DNA of 64,000 bases, taken from an uncultured bacterium (GTDB taxonomy: Bacteria; Acidobacteriota; DATKUA01). Made by a program: the position numbers and the translations under genes. Below, one piece after another: positions 1-8,089 of the stretch; the stretch's first letter is position 1, and each line of letters begins with the position of its first letter. Under the pieces are notes generated by a model, which was not told the DNA's origin, made no database searches, and worked only from the letters and a program-made list of their open reading frames with translations. Location: the NCBI GenBank assembly GCA_965602675.1, contig CBFCZO010000007.1, forward strand, positions 4,240 through 68,239. The letters run 5' to 3'.

Positions 1-542
1 ACAACGCATCGATCAAGGCGGCGCGCTTCGTCCGCTTCTGCAATGCCTTCAATCTCCCGATCGTCACCTTAGAGGACGTGCCGGGATTCATGCCGGGCAC
101 CTCACAGGAGTACGGCGGCATCATCCGCAACGGCGCCAAGCTGCTGTTCGCGTTCGCCGAGTGCACCGTGCCCAAGATCACCGTCGTTATCCGTAAGGCC
201 TACGGCGGCGCCTACTGCGTCATGAGCTCCAAGCACATCCGCGGCGACGTCAACTTCGCCTGGCCGACGGCCGAGATCGCCGTTATGGGCCCCGAGGGAG
301 CCGTGGAGATCATCTACAGCAAAGACCTCAAGGAGGCGGAGGATCCGGCGGCCAGGAAGGAGGAGCTGATGCAGCAGTACCTCGACCTCTTCGCCAACCC
401 CTACACGGCCGCCAAAAAGGGCTATATCGACGACGTCATCGAGCCCGCCAATACACGTTTCCGGATTGCAAAAGCGCTGGAGATGCTGGCGAGCAAACGG
501 GACTCCAATCCAGAAAAGAAAATCAGCAACATACCACTGTAA
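1..542 (+). CDS. mmdA: Acyl-CoA carboxyltransferase, C-terminal part (5'-truncated at window edge). Given the linked OadG-like/biotin-carrier/OadB genes, this is the methylmalonyl-CoA decarboxylase alpha subunit.
   Basis: In-frame translation from the window start carries the carboxyltransferase-domain signature (…[18 protein letters not shown]…[20 protein letters not shown]…), which matches the propionyl-CoA carboxylase beta / MmdA family. The stop is at 540-542. Confidence 0.85.
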
Positions 543-554
543 CAGGAGTCCGTC

Positions 555-857
555 GTGGAACTTGCAGATGCCCTGACAGTTGCCATCGCCGGCATGTCCG
601 TGGTTTTTTTCGGCCTGATACTGACCAGCCTGATCATTTCAGCTTTCAGCTTCGTACCGAACCTCCTCGAATCGATTAAAAACCGCGCCAAATTAAAATC
701 GGGTGAGAACCAGAGGAAGGTGGTTCTCGAAAACGTCGATCCGGATATCCTGGCCGTGATCGCGACCGTGCTCGAGGTGGAGCGGCGGCTCCAATACTCC
801 TACAGGGTCAGCAAGTTCACCTTCAAAGACAGGCAGCCGACATCCGGGCTTGTTTGA
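555..857 (+). CDS. Small membrane-anchored subunit, OadG/MmdD-like, of a Na+-translocating decarboxylase
   Basis: 100-aa protein with a GTG start 13 bp after mmdA. It has an N-terminal transmembrane helix (LTVAIAGMSVVFFGLILTSLII) and a charged tail, and sits between the carboxyltransferase and biotin-carrier genes as in mmd/oad operons. Confidence 0.6.
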   Translation: MELADALTVAIAGMSVVFFGLILTSLIISAFSFVPNLLESIKNRAKLKSGENQRKVVLENVDPDILAVIATVLEVERRLQYSYRVSKFTFKDRQPTSGLV

Positions 858-898
858 CCGGATTTGTCAGACAAATTCCTCAGCGGAGGATTCAATAA

Positions 899-1363
899 AT
901 GCGCGAATATGTTTTAGCCATAAGCGGCAAGGAGTACAAGGCCAGAGTGAAGGAGATCACCGCCGAGTACGCCCGGATCGTCGTCGATGATAAGGAGTAT
1001 CTCGTCGAGCTCGAGCAATTCGGCCAGAGCGAAATCTCCCCGCCGCCGGTCCGCAGAATCGAGCGGCAGCCCGCCGATACGGAGGCGCCCCTGAACGAGA
1101 CCCGGACGGTGACCACCTCCGCCGGACTCGCCGGCAGCGTCACCTCTCCCCTGCCCGGGACGATCCTGGAAATCCTGACGAACGAGGGCGATACGGTCAA
1201 GGCGGGCCAGAACCTGCTGGTGATGGAGTCGATGAAAATGGAAAACAAGATCCAGGCACCGCACGACGGCATGGTCAAGAAGATATTTGTCCGCAACGGC
1301 GACAACGTCTCCGAGGGCGACAAGCTCGTCGAGGTTACGCGCCCCATGATGACAACTCTGTGA
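899..1363 (+). CDS. Biotin carboxyl carrier protein (biotinyl domain), decarboxylase gamma subunit
   Basis: The C-terminal biotinyl-lysine motif ESMKMEN is embedded in a typical lipoyl/biotinyl domain (GQNLLVMESMKMENKIQAPHDGMV). A GGAGGA ribosome-binding site precedes the ATG. Confidence 0.85.
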   Translation: MREYVLAISGKEYKARVKEITAEYARIVVDDKEYLVELEQFGQSEISPPPVRRIERQPADTEAPLNETRTVTTSAGLAGSVTSPLPGTILEILTNEGDTVKAGQNLLVMESMKMENKIQAPHDGMVKKIFVRNGDNVSEGDKLVEVTRPMMTTL

Positions 1364-1417
1364 TAACTCTGCGCAACTGGAGCCGATTGTAAATGAAATA
1401 AAAGGATTCGGAACACC

Positions 1418-3100
1418 ATGAGAAAATGGTTGCTAATCCTGGTTGTGCTGCTGATTTCCCCGGCTGCGGAAGCCGGTGACAAGTTTATAGTCATTCATAC
1501 CGATGACCAGTACATCCGCCTCCTCAAAGGCACCGATGCGGGCATCGAGACCGGCACCACCGGCACGCTGCTCGACGCCAGGAAGGAAACCATCGGCGGC
1601 TTTGAAATCATAGAGGCGGAGGATGCCGTATCCATCGCGAGGGTCTCGCTGGCCGGCAATCACCTGCTCAAGGAACTGGACAGGGTCGACATCGAAACAC
1701 TCAACCTACTGGACATCGCCTTCAAATTCGAGAATTCCGATAGCTATTTCCTCGTCGACAAGGGCGAGAAGGACGGCGTCCGCAAGGGCACCAAGGGAAA
1801 GCTGCTCAAGGGCGGCAGGCTGATCGGATATTTCCGGATCATCTCTGCCGACGAATTGAATTCGACAGGACTTGCATACCAGCTCGATGTCGGCAGGGAT
1901 TATCGCGACGCCGAGACCGGCGAGTTCCAGGACTACTTCGAGCAGATAATCGGCAGCACCGGCCTAGTCAACCTCGATTACACAAACCTGATCATGATCG
2001 CCGTCGGCCTGCTCTTCATCTACCTGGCAATCGTGAAAGACTACGAGCCGCTGCTGCTGCTGCCGATCGGCTTCGGAATCCTGATCGGAAACATCCCGCT
2101 GCCGCTGCAACTGTTCAACAATATCTCGATCTATATGATCGACCCCATCACCCACCAATACGCCTTCAACACCACCGCCAACTCCGTTCTCGGTATCATC
2201 TATTCGCTTATAACCTCCGGCGTTCTACCGCCCCTGATCTTCCTCGGCATCGGGGCTATGACCGATTTCACAACCTTGCTCTCCAACCCAAAAACCGTCC
2301 TGCTGGGAGCGGCGGCACAGATCGGCGTGTTCGCGACTTTCCTCGGGGCGCTGTGGCTCGGCTTCAATCCGCAGTCCGCGGCTTCGATAGGAATTATCGG
2401 CGGGGCCGACGGCCCCACGGCTATCTTCCTCACCTCCAAGCTGGCGCCCTCGCTGATCGGCCCGATAGCCATAGCCGCCTACTCCTACATGGGCCTGATC
2501 CCCATCATCCAGCCCCCGATCATGAGGCTCCTGACTTCCACAAAGGAAAGGCTGATCCGGATGAAGCCCGGCCGCAAGGTCAGCAAGCGCGAGAAGATCA
2601 TCTTTCCCATCATCGCCTTTCTGGTGACCACGATGATCGCCCCCGGCGCCATCCCGCTGCTAGGTATGCTCTTCTTCGGCAACCTGCTCAAGGAATCCGG
2701 CGTCACCGCCCGCCTTGCCAAGACAGCAGCCAACGCGCTCATCGACATCGCAACCATTCTGCTCGGCTTGGGAGTGGGTGCCTCGACCACCGCGCAGGTG
2801 TTCCTCAACACAAAGTCTATCCTCATCTTTGTCCTCGGTTGCCTGGCGTTTATTGTCGCCAGCGCGTTCGGAATTCTCTTCGCCAAGTTCATGAACCTGT
2901 TCCTCGGCAAGGAAAACAAGATCAATCCGCTGATCGGCTCGGCTGGCGTCTCGGCTGTTCCCGACGCCGCCAGGGTCTCTGAGATGATCGGCCGCAGGTA
3001 TGATCCCAACAACCATCTGCTGATGCACGCCATGGGTCCAAATGTCGCCGGCGTCATCGGCTCAGGCATCGCCGCGGGGATCCTGCTGGGAATCTTTTAA
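1418..3100 (+). CDS. mmdB: Na+-transporting decarboxylase beta subunit (OadB/MmdB family) with an unusual ~180-aa N-terminal signal-anchored extension
   Basis: From residue ~185 onward the protein is a recognisable OadB: …IYLAIVKDYEPLLLLPIGFGILIGNIP… and C-terminal …SAGVSAVPDAA…MGPNVAGVIGS…. Upstream of that lies an N-terminal signal-like helix plus ~170 aa of Lys/Gly-rich, internally duplicated sequence, all in the same frame. Confidence 0.8.
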   Translation: MRKWLLILVVLLISPAAEAGDKFIVIHTDDQYIRLLKGTDAGIETGTTGTLLDARKETIGGFEIIEAEDAVSIARVSLAGNHLLKELDRVDIETLNLLDIAFKFENSDSYFLVDKGEKDGVRKGTKGKLLKGGRLIGYFRIISADELNSTGLAYQLDVGRDYRDAETGEFQDYFEQIIGSTGLVNLDYTNLIMIAVGLLFIYLAIVKDYEPLLLLPIGFGILIGNIPLPLQLFNNISIYMIDPITHQYAFNTTANSVLGIIYSLITSGVLPPLIFLGIGAMTDFTTLLSNPKTVLLGAAAQIGVFATFLGALWLGFNPQSAASIGIIGGADGPTAIFLTSKLAPSLIGPIAIAAYSYMGLIPIIQPPIMRLLTSTKERLIRMKPGRKVSKREKIIFPIIAFLVTTMIAPGAIPLLGMLFFGNLLKESGVTARLAKTAANALIDIATILLGLGVGASTTAQVFLNTKSILIFVLGCLAFIVASAFGILFAKFMNLFLGKENKINPLIGSAGVSAVPDAARVSEMIGRRYDPNNHLLMHAMGPNVAGVIGSGIAAGILLGIF

Positions 3101-3111
3101 GGAGTTCTAAT

Positions 3112-4029
3112 ATGTCCAAAATTCTTTCGGTTGTGCCAAATATATGCGAGGGCAGGGATCCCAAATTCATCGACTTCCTCGTGCAGAAGTTGCATGCCGT
3201 GAAGGGCCTGATCCTGCTCGACGTTTCCAGTGACACATCCCGCAACCGGACCGTTTTCTCCTTCACCGGCAAGCCCGAGGTGATCTTCCAGGGCGGCTTT
3301 GTACTGTATGAAGAAGCAATGAAACATATCGACATGCGCCGCCACGAGGGCTCATACCCGCGGATCGGCGCGGTGGACGTGTTTCCTTTCGTGCCGCTCA
3401 CGAACGTATCGATCGAAGAAGCCGTCGAGCTTTCTGTCGACTTCGCCAGGCAGGTGGCCGACCGATTCAAAGTGCCGGTCTATCTCTTCGCCGAGTCGGC
3501 ACAGGTGCCCAGCAGGAGGGACGTCGAAAGCATCCGCGAGGGCGAATTCGAGGGCCTGGAGCAAAAGCTGAAGGCACCCCGATGGAAACCGGACTTCGGA
3601 CCGATCGAGTTCAAGCCCGATTTCGGCGCGACGATCATCGGCGCCCGCTATCCGCTTATCAGCTTCAAGGTGCTGCTCAACACCTCGGATAAGGGTATCG
3701 CCCAGGTGATCAGCCAGGCCGTAGAGGATATCGTTCACGTCCATTCCTATTGCGGCATCGAGCCCGAGCGCAAGCTCATGCAGCTCACCGTCTCGATCTC
3801 CAACTACCGCAAGAAGCCGATGTACAAGGTGATCGAGGCGATCCGCATGGAGGCACGGCGCTACGGCGTTTGCATCGCCAATGTCGAAATGATAGGCCTC
3901 ATTCCGGAGGTGGCCTTCATCGAGTCTGCGCTTTACTACATGAACATTCACCAGTTTCCGATCGACCGCCTGCTCGAGCGCAGCGTGCAAAAGCACCTGT
4001 CGGAGCGCATCCAACTGGAAGAAGAATAA
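3112..4029 (+). CDS. Glutamate formimidoyltransferase (formiminotransferase domain)
   Basis: The N-terminal …VPNICEGRD… motif and 305-aa length match the FtcD formiminotransferase domain. An AAGGAG ribosome-binding site precedes the ATG. Confidence 0.75.
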   Translation: MSKILSVVPNICEGRDPKFIDFLVQKLHAVKGLILLDVSSDTSRNRTVFSFTGKPEVIFQGGFVLYEEAMKHIDMRRHEGSYPRIGAVDVFPFVPLTNVSIEEAVELSVDFARQVADRFKVPVYLFAESAQVPSRRDVESIREGEFEGLEQKLKAPRWKPDFGPIEFKPDFGATIIGARYPLISFKVLLNTSDKGIAQVISQAVEDIVHVHSYCGIEPERKLMQLTVSISNYRKKPMYKVIEAIRMEARRYGVCIANVEMIGLIPEVAFIESALYYMNIHQFPIDRLLERSVQKHLSERIQLEEE

Positions 4030-4049
4030 GTTTGCAGACAGTATAAACA

Positions 4050-4086
4050 CAACGGGGCCGCGTCTCACACGGTGGCCCCGTTTTGT
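4050..4086. terminator. Bidirectional intrinsic terminator between convergent genes
   Basis: ACGGGGCC…GGCCCCGT hairpin followed by TTTTG, located between the stop at 4029 (+) and the stop at 4093 (-). Confidence 0.6.
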
Positions 4087-4092
4087 CTCAAC

Positions 4093-5775
4093 TCAAACTG
4101 TAAGAATTTCTTGATGCTCGCCGAAGACGGCCCTCAGTGCGTCGGAGATCTCACCCAATGTCGTGTAGCAGCGGACGCACTCGAGGATGGGCGGCATCAC
4201 GTTCTCGCTCCCCGCAGCAGCCTCTCTCAAGCGCTTAAGCGATTGGCGAACCGCGCCGTTGTCGCGCGATGAACGCAGATCGGCCAGCTCCTTAATCTTG
4301 TCCTGCTCGACCGTTTCGTCAATGTGCAGGAGGTCCGCCTCATTCTCCGCTTTGCTGCTGCGGAACCGGTTGACGCCGACAACAACCTGGTCACCCTTCT
4401 CGATCGCCCGCTGATAACGGTAAGCCGCATCCTGGATCTCGCCTTGGACGAAGCCGTTCTCGATCGCCCTGATCGCGCCGCCGACCTCATCAATCCGCTC
4501 GATATACTCAGCCGCACGGCGTTCGATCTCGTCGGTCAAACTCTCGATCGCGTAGCTGCCGGCGAGCGGATCGATCGTATCGGCCACGCCGCTCTCATAA
4601 GCGATAACCTGTTGCGTGCGCAAGGCGATTTCCACCGTCCTCTCGCTAGGCAGCGCCATCGCTTCGTCGAGGCTGTTGGTGTGCAGGCTTTGCGTGCCTC
4701 CGAGAACGGCAGCGAGCGCCTGGAGCGCCACGCGCACCACGTTGTTCTCCGGCTGCTGTGCGGTCAGCGTCGAGCCGGCGGTCTGCGTGTGGAATCGCAG
4801 CAGCATCGACTTGGGGTCCTTCGCCCCGAAGCGTTCCTTGACGATCCGCGCCCACAGCCGGCGCGCAGCACGGAACTTGGCGATTTCCTCGAGGAAATTG
4901 TTGTGGCAGTTGAAGAAAAACGCGATCCGCGGTGCGATGTAGTCTACTTCCAGGCCGGCGCCCTTCGCTGCCTCAAGATAGGCGATTGCGTTGGCCAGCG
5001 TGAAGGCCACCTCCTGCACCGCCGTGCTGCCGGCCTCGCGGATGTGGTAGCCGCTGATGCTGATCGTGTTCCATTTCGGAACGTGGCTGTGGCAGAACTC
5101 GAAGATGTTGGTGATGATCCGCATCGACGCAGCCGGTGGGAAAATGTAGGTGCCGCGCGCGACGTACTCCTTGAGTATGTCGTTCTGGATCGTGCCGCGC
5201 AGGTTGTTAGCCGCCACGCCGGTCTGCTCCGCGCGGGCGATGTAGAGAGCCAGCAGAGTCGAGGCCGTGGCGTTGATTGTCATCGACGTCGACACCTTGT
5301 CGAGCGGGATACCGTCGAACAGCACCTCGAAATCGCGCAGGCTGTCGATGGCCACGCCGACCTTGCCGACCTCGCCGTGGCTCATCGGATGGTCGCTGTC
5401 GTAACCGATCTGCGTCGGCAGGTCGAACGCCACGCTCAGACCGGTTGTCCCCTGCTCCAGCAGATACTTGTAGCGCTGGTTGGATTCGGCCGCGGTGGCG
5501 AAACCGCTGTACTGGCGCATCGTCCAGAATCGCCCGCAGTACATCGTCGGCTGCACCCCGCGTGTGAACGGATATTCTCCCGGGAAACCGAGCTTCTTGA
5601 CGTAAGACCATCCATCGTCGTCCAGATCGGTGGGATCGAAACAGCGCTTCATCTCGATTCCGCTGCTCGTCTCGAACTTCGCCTTGCGCTCAGGATATTT
5701 ATCAAGGGCCTTTGATGTTTTGGCGGCCCATCGTTCCTTCTCGTTCAGCAACGTCTGCCGTTCTGAGTCGTCCAT
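4093..5775 (-). CDS. Methylmalonyl-CoA mutase, large catalytic (N-terminal) domain subunit; no fused B12-binding domain
   Basis: Strong mutase signatures (…[67 protein letters not shown]…). The chosen start is M22 of the ORF, at 5775, behind an AGGAGG site. The protein ends before any B12-binding (DxHxxG) domain. Confidence 0.9.
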
Positions 5776-5968
5776 AGGTTCCTCCTGGTGCGCAAAGCCA
5801 CGGAGCATTCTATGTGCGCGCCATCGCAATGGCAACAAATCGGCGAAACAAATCGACCCTGCAGGAACGATTTAAATGCTGCGCTCGCCGCGGCTGCCAC
5901 AAATCCCTTGTATGTACAATAAAAAGCCCCACGGGAAACCGCAGGGCTTTGGTTCGCTGATTCCCGGA

Positions 5969-8089
5969 CTATTGCGTGATACCGAGCAGGTCGAACATAA
6001 AGGCGTAGTAGAAGGCGTAGTCGCGGTAGCGCTTGAAGCGGCCGGAGGCGCCGCCGTGGCCGGCCTCCATGTTCGTCCTCAGCAGTAGACGGTTGTCGTC
6101 GGTCTTGAGCGCGCGTAGCTTGGCCACCCACTTGGCCGGCTCGAAGTACTGCACCTGTGAGTCGTGCAGGCTGGTTGTGACCAGCATGTTGGGGTAGGCC
6201 TTAGCCTCCACCTGGTCGTAGGGCGAGTAGGAAAGCATGTAGTCGTAGTACACCTTGTCGTTGGGGTTGCCCCACTCGTCGTACTCGCTGGTGGTCAGCG
6301 GGATGGAGGGATCGAGCATCGTGGTGATCACGTCGACCCACGGCACGTGCGCGAGGATGCCCTTGAACTGCTCGGGCGCCATGTTGGCGATCGCGCCCAT
6401 AAGCAGGCCGCCGGCGCTGCCGCCCTGCGCGAAGAGGCCGTCGGCGTAAGTGTAGTCCTCGTCGCAGAGGTACTTGGCGCAGTCGATGAAGTCGGTAAAG
6501 GTGTTCTTCTTCTTCAGCAGCTTGCCGTCGTCGTACCACCACCGGCCGAGCTCCTGACCGCCGCGCACGTGCGCGATGGCGTAGGAGACGCCGCGGTCGA
6601 CCAGCGTCAGGCGGATCGAGCTGAAGGTGGCGTCCGTGCTCGAGCCATACGAACCATAAGCATAGAGCAACAGCGGATTGGTACCGTCCTTCTTCATCAG
6701 CTCGGTCTTGTAGACGAGCGAGATCGGCACCTTGACGCCGTCGCGCGCGGTCGCCCACAGCCGCTCCGTGGTGTAGTTGGCGGGATCGAAGTCGCCCAGC
6801 ACCTCGTCGCGCTTCATCAACTCCTGCTCTCGCGAGGCCATATTGTAGTCGTAGGTCGACCAGGGCGTCGTCAGCGAGCTGTACCTGTAGCGCACCACGG
6901 GAGTGTCGAACTCCGGATTGGTGCTGACGTAGGCCATGTAAGCCGGCTCGCCGAAGTCGATGTAGTGCTCCTCGCCACCGTCCCAGGGCGCTATGCGGAT
7001 CTGGTTGAGGCCGTTCTTGCGCTCCTGCAGCACCAAGTAGTCCTTGAAGATCTCGATCCCTTCAAGCAACACGTCCTCGCGGTGCGGGATCACTTCCTCC
7101 CAGTTCTCCTGGGCGGTGGCCGTCACCGGGGTCTTCAGCAGGCGGAAGTTCTGCGCGTCCCAGTTGCTGACGATGTAGAAGTAGTCGCCGAAGTGGTCGA
7201 TCGAGTACTCGTGCTCGCGTTCGCGGGGCATAAAGAGTGTGAACTCGCCGGAGGGGTTGTCCGCGTCGAGGAAGCGGTACTCCGCGGCCAGCGTCTGTTG
7301 GCTGGCGATGATGATGTAGCGATCCGATTTCGTCTTCCATACGTAGGCTTCGAAAGTGTCATCGTCCTCCTGGTAAATCAGCGCGTCGCCGGCCGGGTCG
7401 CTGCCCAGCTCGTGGAGGTAGATCTGGAAGGAGCGCAGCGTCTCGGGGTCCTGCTTGCCGTAGAAAACCGTCTTGTTGTCGTTGGCCCAAGCCACGTTTC
7501 CCGTGACGTCGGGGATGACGTCGTCGTACATTTCGCCGCTCTCGATGTTCATAAAGGAGATGGTGTAGAAGCGCCGGCCGACAGTGTCCACGCCGTAGGC
7601 GAGGAGCTTGTTGTCGGTGCTGACGTTGAGGCCGCGGATGCTGAAGAACGGGTGGCCCTCGGCCAGCATGTTGGAGTCGACCATGATCTCCTCCTCGGCC
7701 TCGAGCGTGCCCGCCTTGCGGCAGTAGATCGCGTACTCCTTGCCCTCCTCGAAGCGGCTGTAGTACCAATAGCCGTTCTTGAAGTAGGGCACCGACTCGT
7801 CGGTCTGCTTGATGCGGCCCTTGATCTCCTCGAAGAGTTTCTCCTGGAAATCCTCTGTGTTGGCCATCATCTTCGCGGTGTAGTCGTTCTCGGCGGTCAG
7901 GTAGGCAATCACCTCGGGATTCTCGCGCTCCTTGAGCCAGTAATAGTTGTCGACGCGGACATCGCCATGTATTTCGAGTTCCTTCGCCTCAATCTTGGCG
8001 ACCGGGGGCTGAACTGCCTGTTCCGCCGGCTGGCAAGAAACCAGCATAAGAAGCAGAAACAGTGGTATTAATGCTTTGACTGAACGCAT
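5969..8089 (-). CDS. ptrB: Oligopeptidase B / prolyl oligopeptidase family (S9A) serine peptidase; lipoprotein signal
   Basis: N-terminal beta-propeller region and C-terminal catalytic region (…GGSAGGLLMGAIANMAPEQFKG…) match the S9A family. The signal peptide ends in LVSC. Confidence 0.85.
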   Translation of the reverse strand: MRSVKALIPLFLLLMLVSCQPAEQAVQPPVAKIEAKELEIHGDVRVDNYYWLKERENPEVIAYLTAENDYTAKMMANTEDFQEKLFEEIKGRIKQTDESVPYFKNGYWYYSRFEEGKEYAIYCRKAGTLEAEEEIMVDSNMLAEGHPFFSIRGLNVSTDNKLLAYGVDTVGRRFYTISFMNIESGEMYDDVIPDVTGNVAWANDNKTVFYGKQDPETLRSFQIYLHELGSDPAGDALIYQEDDDTFEAYVWKTKSDRYIIIASQQTLAAEYRFLDADNPSGEFTLFMPREREHEYSIDHFGDYFYIVSNWDAQNFRLLKTPVTATAQENWEEVIPHREDVLLEGIEIFKDYLVLQERKNGLNQIRIAPWDGGEEHYIDFGEPAYMAYVSTNPEFDTPVVRYRYSSLTTPWSTYDYNMASREQELMKRDEVLGDFDPANYTTERLWATARDGVKVPISLVYKTELMKKDGTNPLLLYAYGSYGSSTDATFSSIRLTLVDRGVSYAIAHVRGGQELGRWWYDDGKLLKKKNTFTDFIDCAKYLCDEDYTYADGLFAQGGSAGGLLMGAIANMAPEQFKGILAHVPWVDVITTMLDPSIPLTTSEYDEWGNPNDKVYYDYMLSYSPYDQVEAKAYPNMLVTTSLHDSQVQYFEPAKWVAKLRALKTDDNRLLLRTNMEAGHGGASGRFKRYRDYAFYYAFMFDLLGITQ

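Follow-up and report, generated by a model that had tools for sequence, protein, structure and literature searches.

A 64,000-nucleotide stretch of DNA from an uncultured acidobacterium (contig CBFCZO010000007.1), referred to here as the window, carries at positions 1418 to 3100 of its forward strand a single unbroken open reading frame (ORF) of 560 aa with an ATG start. By its sequence, the product is the carboxybiotin decarboxylase and Na+ path subunit (beta subunit) of a biotin-dependent decarboxylase Na+ pump, here in a long form led by an N-terminal extension that is predicted to be exported and to fold into two small beta-barrels. Decarboxylase Na+ pumps are textbook primary pumps. To our knowledge, only one beta-subunit structure exists, and we know of no periplasmic domain described for these pumps beyond the small helical domain E. 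The gene and its parts are as follows.

1402..1406, + strand: Shine-Dalgarno-like AAGGA, 11 nt 5' of the ATG (sequence reading and start-codon scan)
1418..3100, + strand: long-form beta subunit gene, 560 aa
1418..1474, + strand: predicted signal peptide, residues 1-19 (MRKWLLILVVLLISPAAEA, followed by GDK), from heuristic sequence rules
1478..1702, + strand: predicted beta-barrel repeat 1, residues ~21-95 (AlphaFold2 strands 22-26, 31-35, 48-52, 58-67, 72-78 and 89-92)
1703..1927, + strand: predicted beta-barrel repeat 2, residues ~96-170 (AlphaFold2 strands 97-100, 102-104, 110-113, 126-131, 134-144, 149-154 and 167-170)
1928..1984, + strand: conserved segment ahead of transmembrane helix T1 (pre-T1 segment), residues 171-189 (FQDYFEQIIGSTGLVNLDYT), corresponding to the canonical OadB N terminus (alignment with Salmonella OadB)
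1985..3100, + strand: carboxybiotin decarboxylase/Na+ channel domain (OAD_beta), residues 190-560 plus stop codon (PF03977, TIGR01109 and the match to 6iva/6iww)

Pump domain and N-terminal extension

The frame of the long beta ORF opens only at 1397, and the Shine-Dalgarno-like motif has a counterpart, AAGGG, at the equivalent place in a relative (L087). The Pfam model OAD_beta (PF03977) matches residues 190-559 almost end to end (profile positions 2-348 of 349) with 495 bits against a cutoff of 31.6, and TIGR01109 matches residues 190-555 (profile positions 2-354 of 354) with 489 bits against a cutoff of 190.6. Residues 1-189 returned zero Pfam or NCBIfam matches. The initial annotation, which had described an OadB-type subunit with an N-terminal extension in one ORF, was correct in this respect, whereas its placement of the canonical start at about residue 185 has to be moved. 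In a phmmer comparison with sequences of the Protein Data Bank (PDB), residues 177-228 aligned with residues 7-58 of Salmonella OadB (6iva/6iww) and residues 256-557 with residues 121-427 (E value, 3e-112). Canonical OadB therefore begins at about residues 171 to 177, residue 7 of the Salmonella protein falling on residue 177, and the extension comprises about 170 aa. The extension proposed earlier, of about 180 aa, is thus real but is better described as an exported domain of about 150 aa plus a 19-aa signal peptide. It is Gly-rich (19 of 165 residues), as had been stated, but not Lys-rich overall (11 of 165), the richness in Lys and Gly being local to the repeat motif.

The residues known to be essential in Salmonella OadB are retained. 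E40, T148/D149, D203 and Y227/Y229 correspond to E210, T282/D283, D331 and Y355/Y357 of the long beta subunit in the phmmer alignment to 6iva_A, in which positions were counted by hand, and N373, G377, S382, R389, N412 and S419 correspond to N503, G507, S512, R519, N542 and S549. The sole difference among the key sites compared is N392, which is replaced by E522. As the essential residues are conserved, the pump is most likely functional. The pre-T1 segment is likewise conserved among the long forms (Y173 and Q176 in 97%, G182 in 100% and N185 in 94%). Overall, we regard this anatomy of the long-form subunit as near certain.

The extension consists of two related halves, as the initial annotation had suspected. 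Residues 29-68 align with residues 108-146 with a local score of 62, compared with 25 +/- 5 for shuffled sequences, none of which (0 of 500) reached 62. Family profiles of the two halves matched each other over 62 columns with an hhalign probability of 98.4% (E value, 4.3e-15), and a KGxxxGxxxGxxGxLL motif occurs in each repeat. When the extension was modeled alone with AlphaFold2 from a 37-sequence alignment, an all-beta structure with two groups of six or seven strands was obtained, with a mean predicted local distance difference test score (pLDDT) of 92.2 and a predicted template modeling score (pTM) of 0.82; 10-residue blocks across both barrels had pLDDT values of 93 to 98. In the model of the full-length protein, the pLDDT of the extension was 85 to 91.

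Fold comparisons of this model returned MreC (9.5, 8.9, 8.4 and 7.1), a flagellar basal-body protein of the LPHT ring (9.1), HerA (7.9) and the N-terminal barrels of V/F-type ATPases (7.1 to 7.7), always superposing one barrel at a time only. Foldseek matches were weak (E value of 0.016 or worse), with TsaP and MreC first. The Pfam model of the MreC barrel core (PF04085) was matched below threshold in 6 of the 37 extension sequences (best E value, 0.0016), and the window's own extension reached 13.8 bits against a gathering cutoff of 28 (E value, 0.052), the weak match lying in repeat 2. A profile search of PDB sequences with the extension gave nothing significant. From the AlphaFold2 model and the fold matches together, residues 20-170 are therefore predicted to form two tandem homologous, small, six-stranded beta-barrels of the MreC/FlgT/TsaP type, a likeness at the level of the fold and not membership of the MreC family. 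Within the barrels, conservation is confined to G, F, Y and L columns, that is, glycine, aromatic and hydrophobic positions with no conserved polar patch, and among relatives the net charge of the extension ranges between -19 and +8. It is thus unlikely that the extension acts as an enzyme, binds ions or has a conserved function in ligand binding. The idea of an electrostatic funnel was considered and rejected because of the same spread in net charge.

Residues 1-19 are predicted to be a Sec-type signal peptide. The layout reads MRK / WLLILVVLLISP / AEA followed by G, with a basic n-region (RK), a 14-residue uncharged core and a Pro ahead of A-E-A. By a heuristic rule check (basic n-region, hydrophobic core of about 10 to 20 residues, small residues at -3 and -1, no lipobox), the window sequence has all features of a Sec-dependent type I signal peptide. 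The signal-like N-terminal helix pointed out in the initial annotation recurs as a hydrophobic core in all 51 aligned sequences (the window and 50 of 50 relatives), while an n-region bearing K or R is present in 48 of 51 (47 of the 50 relatives) and a small-x-small site precedes the mature part in most. A lipobox-like L-x-x-C match was flagged by the heuristic scan in two relatives and is absent from the window.

The predicted export agrees with the topology of the pump. In the eLife 2020 structure of Salmonella OadB, Glu40 is among the conserved residues at the cytoplasmic face, and the interface of the trimer is where T1 and T2 are located (PMC7274780). Glu40 falls within the T1-T2 loop (KKFEP) and corresponds to E210 (KDYEP) in the long beta subunit. 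As this loop is cytoplasmic in Salmonella OadB, the N-terminal end of T1 would be periplasmic, which would therefore place the double barrel on the periplasmic face of the pump. The known topology agrees fully with the predicted order of a signal peptide, an exported domain and a T1 helix that crosses the membrane inward. Furthermore, a strongly basic loop at residues 370-395 would be cytoplasmic after five crossings, consistent with an exported N terminus. The last strand of barrel 2 (residues 167-170) ends only a few residues from the pre-T1 segment, so the barrels would be held near the membrane face with no long tether. CitS has one extra N-terminal helix (PMC7274780).

Conservation and distribution of the extension

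In a search with the full-length protein, the best 120 matches were 58 to 100% identical to the query, 543 to 593 aa long and aligned with 94 to 100% of the query, with two exceptions, namely P0067 (853 aa, 96% coverage) and one 401-aa NCBI entry. P0067 is a read-through fusion of the beta and FTCD genes, probably caused by a frameshift. In the 51-sequence alignment, the signal peptide and both repeats were found in every member, with G38 and G49 of repeat 1 and K126 and G127 of repeat 2 invariant. On average, relatives were 36% identical to the window over the extension and 79% identical over the pump. Compared with a 93%-identical relative, the ratio of nonsynonymous to synonymous substitution rates (dN/dS) was 0.21 for residues 20-170 and 0.02 for residues 171-560 at similar dS, and indels within the extension are multiples of three. 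These dN/dS values identify the extension as coding sequence under purifying selection. It evolves faster than the pump, being about 10 times more relaxed, and is still under purifying selection.

The named long-form members all belong to the Acidobacteriota (Thermoanaerobaculaceae/Thermoanaerobaculales, Vicinamibacterales and Holophagales). Among 80 species representatives, taken from the first 600 pattern matches of a genome scan, the double barrel was found at the Thermoanaerobaculales locus only among the matches listed, and most of the others have 38 to 50 residues ahead of the YEP motif. In a neighbor-joining tree of 131 sequences built from the pump domain only, the 52 long forms constitute one clade with no canonical form within it. 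This exclusive clade argues for a single origin, by one acquisition in an acidobacterial lineage.

Searches for the extension outside the pump have to be read with the behavior of the search tools in mind. Neither the extension alone nor its 37-sequence profile gave any match in a word-indexed search, a false negative, as the identical protein P0001 is present in the same database; N-terminal domains of longer proteins can be missed by word-indexed protein searches. An exhaustive HMMER search with the extension returned 11 matches, mostly fragments of the long-form family, from a database clustered at 50% identity in which the family is collapsed to a few representatives. P0129, a stand-alone protein of 192 aa, carries two repeats of the barrel motif V.LSKG..DG....G (E value to the extension, 2e-4) and may, by its sequence, be a distant free-standing relative of the double barrel. 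P0127 (1,376 aa, five matching stretches) was set aside, as it looks like an unrelated repeat protein. A literature search of limited coverage found no description of the extension, which is weak evidence of novelty. The extension is absent from the Pfam and NCBIfam domain models; it represents a new variation on a familiar pump subunit, not a system of a new kind.

Operon context and other periplasmic additions

The long beta gene lies fourth in a row of five genes on the forward strand, flanked downstream by two genes on the reverse strand.

1..542, + strand: 3' part of the carboxyltransferase gene (alpha, MmdA-like), truncated at the start of the window (Pfam Carboxyl_trans, profile positions 338-492 of 493; E value, 1e-54)
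555..857, + strand: OadG/MmdD-like small membrane subunit, 100 aa (Pfam OAD_gamma, 49.7 bits against a cutoff of 27)
899..1363, + strand: biotin carboxyl carrier subunit, 154 aa (Pfam Biotin_lipoyl; E value, 3e-20; weak NCBIfam matches to biotin carboxyl carrier protein [BCCP] and MmdC)
3112..4029, + strand: FTCD_N/FTCD-like gene, 305 aa, glutamate-formiminotransferase-like (Pfam FTCD_N; E value, 5e-57)
4093-5838, - strand: methylmalonyl-CoA mutase large subunit, flanking the operon (Pfam MM_CoA_mutase on the homologous neighbor in relatives)
5969-8089, - strand: S9 prolyl-oligopeptidase/oligopeptidase B-like gene, flanking the operon

The carboxyltransferase is full length (516 aa) at the equivalent position in relatives, and the order carboxyltransferase, OadG-like subunit, BCCP, long beta subunit and FTCD-like gene comprises the same five genes in relatives at 61 to 93% identity. 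The mutase and S9 peptidase neighbors also occur in the 93%-identical relative L085. A scan of positions 1-4300 for promoters and terminators gave no signal that exceeded chance, and no terminator was seen to separate the genes of the operon. The FTCD-like gene, which starts 11 nt 3' of the long beta gene and keeps this position in relatives down to 61% identity, is an unusual fifth gene for an operon of a decarboxylase Na+ pump. Its positions in relatives are as follows.

L082, 7744-8670: FTCD-like gene
L085, 4696-5613: FTCD-like gene
L086, 4723-5643: FTCD-like gene
L087, 4219-5136: FTCD-like gene

Other additions on the same side of the pump were seen in the Bacteroidota. At about 10 loci, a signal-peptide-like helix and a low-complexity linker of 20 to 50 aa precede the canonical beta N terminus. 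One of these, L030, had been taken as a second phylum with the extension (coverage, residues 27-557) and was rejected, since it has only a signal peptide or anchor and a linker of about 50 aa. At a further locus, in Maribellus sp. CM-23, the weak matches of the N-terminal domain are to DUF5640/DUF4923 (possibly lipocalin-like), and hhalign gave it a probability of 0.1% against the double barrel; its sequence marks it as a periplasmic addition of independent origin, in this case in a cultured isolate of the Bacteroidota. A long OadG-like gene in a Bacteroidales metagenome-assembled genome (MAG) lies just upstream of a biotin carrier gene and a canonical beta subunit gene.

L002, L007, L008, L017, L030, L037, L039, L044, L060, L080: loci with signal peptide and linker at the beta subunit start
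L031, 4557-6197 (NZ_JADWYJ010000006.1): Maribellus sp. CM-23 beta subunit, 546 aa, in which a signal peptide leads a different N-terminal domain of about 140 aa
L048, 3730-4647: OadG-like protein of Bacteroidales MAG RGIG5007, 305 aa, with a signal peptide and an exported part of about 190 aa; OAD_gamma at residues 193-269

The Bacteroidota additions are unrelated in sequence to the double barrel, being either a short linker or a different domain. Like the double barrel, however, they are led by a signal peptide and are consistent with periplasmic N termini. Because such additions occur on both beta and OadG-like subunits, periplasmic decoration of the pump appears to be recurrent, with the double barrel as one of its forms.

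Role of the double barrel and comparison with known systems

Before a role is considered, it has to be asked whether the upstream 170 codons belong to the pump gene at all. An annotation or assembly artefact, in which the beta subunit starts internally and these codons are a separate small gene or untranslated, would account for several NCBI entries of close relatives with only 366 to 401 aa (the 401-aa entry mentioned above and further clade entries of 366 to 389 aa) and for an N-terminal piece, P0156 (Holophagales), deposited as a "hypothetical protein" of 202 aa. The initial annotation, too, had offered a separate gene starting internally as an alternative to a domain fused to the pump. However, between codons 10 and 193, the start-codon scan found one in-frame start only, TTG147, which has no Shine-Dalgarno motif, and ATG193 falls within transmembrane helix T1; no start with a usable ribosome-binding site lies near codon 171, and no frameshift splits the gene in two. 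The 401-aa entry stems from GCA_035530855.1, in whose DNA the 560-aa ORF is unbroken and is preceded by a ribosome-binding site of its own (L087, DATKUA010000021.1, positions 2524-4206), the public annotation beginning at an internal ATG and leaving 530 nt unannotated. This ORF is 93% identical to the window over its full length and 97% over the annotated 401 aa, and the ATG chosen by NCBI is not conserved, being an Arg codon in the window. The dN/dS of 0.21, the indels in threes, the confident fold and the signal peptide in 51 sequences likewise speak against an artefact, which we consider hardly credible. Still less credible is the idea that an OadG/MmdD-type subunit, or another known small subunit of the pump, has been fused on as the extension. 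OadG, too, has one helix and a periplasmic N terminus, and pump subunits do occur in fused form, but no OAD_gamma (PF04277) match is present in residues 1-189, a separate OadG-like gene lies at 555-857 and in all relatives examined, and the extension is all-beta whereas OadG is a single long helix. The relatives do share the extension, with long forms throughout the best 120 matches bar the entry truncated by NCBI. A domain fused in frame to the pump subunit, kept in more than 100 relatives under purifying selection, with a confident fold and a placement compatible with export, is thus the reading that stood.

For the role of this domain, we give an about even chance to a structural one, in which the double barrels of the three beta subunits would form a periplasmic collar of three copies, or six barrels, on the beta3 trimer. 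Such a collar would stabilize or shield the trimer and, being fixed to the static scaffold (T1), would not hinder the elevator movement of the core. A structural role is favored because only fold-determining residues are kept, the link to the interface helix T1 is short and domain E is missing. Catalysis does not depend on the double barrel, as most family members lack it. The proposed arrangement may be likened to the six-barrel crown of F1/V1-ATPases and HerA, both of which are among the fold matches. Several points weigh against it. The pump part of the full-length AlphaFold2 model was poor (pTM, 0.41) and of no use for positioning the barrels on the pump. Both signal-peptide cleavage and the location in the periplasm are themselves predictions from sequence rules and a homologous structure, and the pump is probably of the methylmalonyl-CoA decarboxylase type, judging from the adjacent mutase gene and the MmdA-like carboxyltransferase.

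Moreover, the fast-evolving surface and the MreC/FlgT/TsaP-like fold would fit equally well with a docking module, the barrels binding another component of the envelope, for instance a penicillin-binding protein, peptidoglycan or a complex in the periplasm or outer membrane, and thereby localizing the pump or coupling it to the envelope. The initial annotation had suggested that the domain could be regulatory or bind a partner, and the fold of the barrels would be compatible with contacts between proteins. We consider such docking rather unlikely, as the surface has no conserved polar residues and no conserved neighboring gene encodes a periplasmic partner, the only extra conserved neighbor being the cytoplasmic-type FTCD-like gene. 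Furthermore, the tether to T1 is a few residues only, whereas MreC extends on a long coiled coil, and the fold matches span one barrel with Foldseek E values of 0.016 or worse. A regulatory lid over the Na+ exit or central cavity, which would control the release of ions, the uptake of protons or back-leak and might do so according to conditions in the periplasm, would suit a domain on the periplasmic face beside T1, and Salmonella OadB has a large cavity at the trimer center that is open to the periplasm (PMC7274780). However, this cavity is hydrophobic and thought not to conduct Na+ (PMC7274780), conserved charged or ligand-binding residues are lacking, net charge is not conserved and most pumps of the family work without such a domain. 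A gating lid is therefore improbable, and less likely than either a collar or a docking module. Returning to the collar, we hold it quite unlikely that a six-barrel ring would be functional and not merely structural, coupling the pump to envelope machinery (as MreC does with PBP2) or gating Na+ release or H+ entry. If true, it would be a new way to regulate or localize a decarboxylase-driven ion pump and one case of an unrecognized habit of the family, namely lineage-specific periplasmic modules on beta and gamma N termini.

The clade-wide acidobacterial long form with its putative exported double-barrel domain is now defined. Public annotation of the family is inconsistent, with entries of 366 to 401 aa beside full-length ones of 560 to 583 aa and a "hypothetical" N-terminal piece, and the full-length reading is the right one. 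The long form provides independent support, at the level of sequence, for a periplasmic N terminus of the beta subunit and, with the other additions, suggests that lineage-specific decoration of the pump is concentrated on its periplasmic side. The findings are of moderate interest for pump structure, evolution and the correction of annotations. As the double-barrel domain is small, confidently modeled and easily deleted, its role is directly testable.

Compared with known systems, residues 171-560 correspond to a full-length member of the OadB/MmdB/GcdB family with matching operon partners and the same short pre-T1 segment, whereas the 170 additional N-terminal residues are found in no described member. 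The long beta subunit lacks the helical domain E (T2-T3') of enterobacterial OadB, its loop 229-255 being short; the OadB-proper subfamily models NF012019-21 gave only about 411 bits against cutoffs of 820 to 824, in a split match from which the region of domain E was absent. In Salmonella OadB, domain E adds slightly to the trimer interface (PMC7274780). Sequence similarity of the extension to MreC (PF04085; 6zlv, 7eft and 2j5u) is under every threshold. In contrast to MreC, the extension has neither a coiled coil nor an mreBCD context, and its barrels are joined to a transporter of 10 helices that a decarboxylase operon encodes. The LPHT-ring flagellar protein (8z5n chain 5) and TsaP on PilQ (6ve2) are separate ring-binding proteins, unlike the fused barrels, and have no detectable sequence relationship to the extension, the matches spanning about 70 residues or being weak (E value, 0.016). 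The crown of F1/V1-ATPase alpha/beta (A/B) subunits and the HAS barrel of HerA are cytoplasmic, contribute one barrel per subunit and belong to different machines; their likeness to the double barrel of the long beta subunit is structural only.

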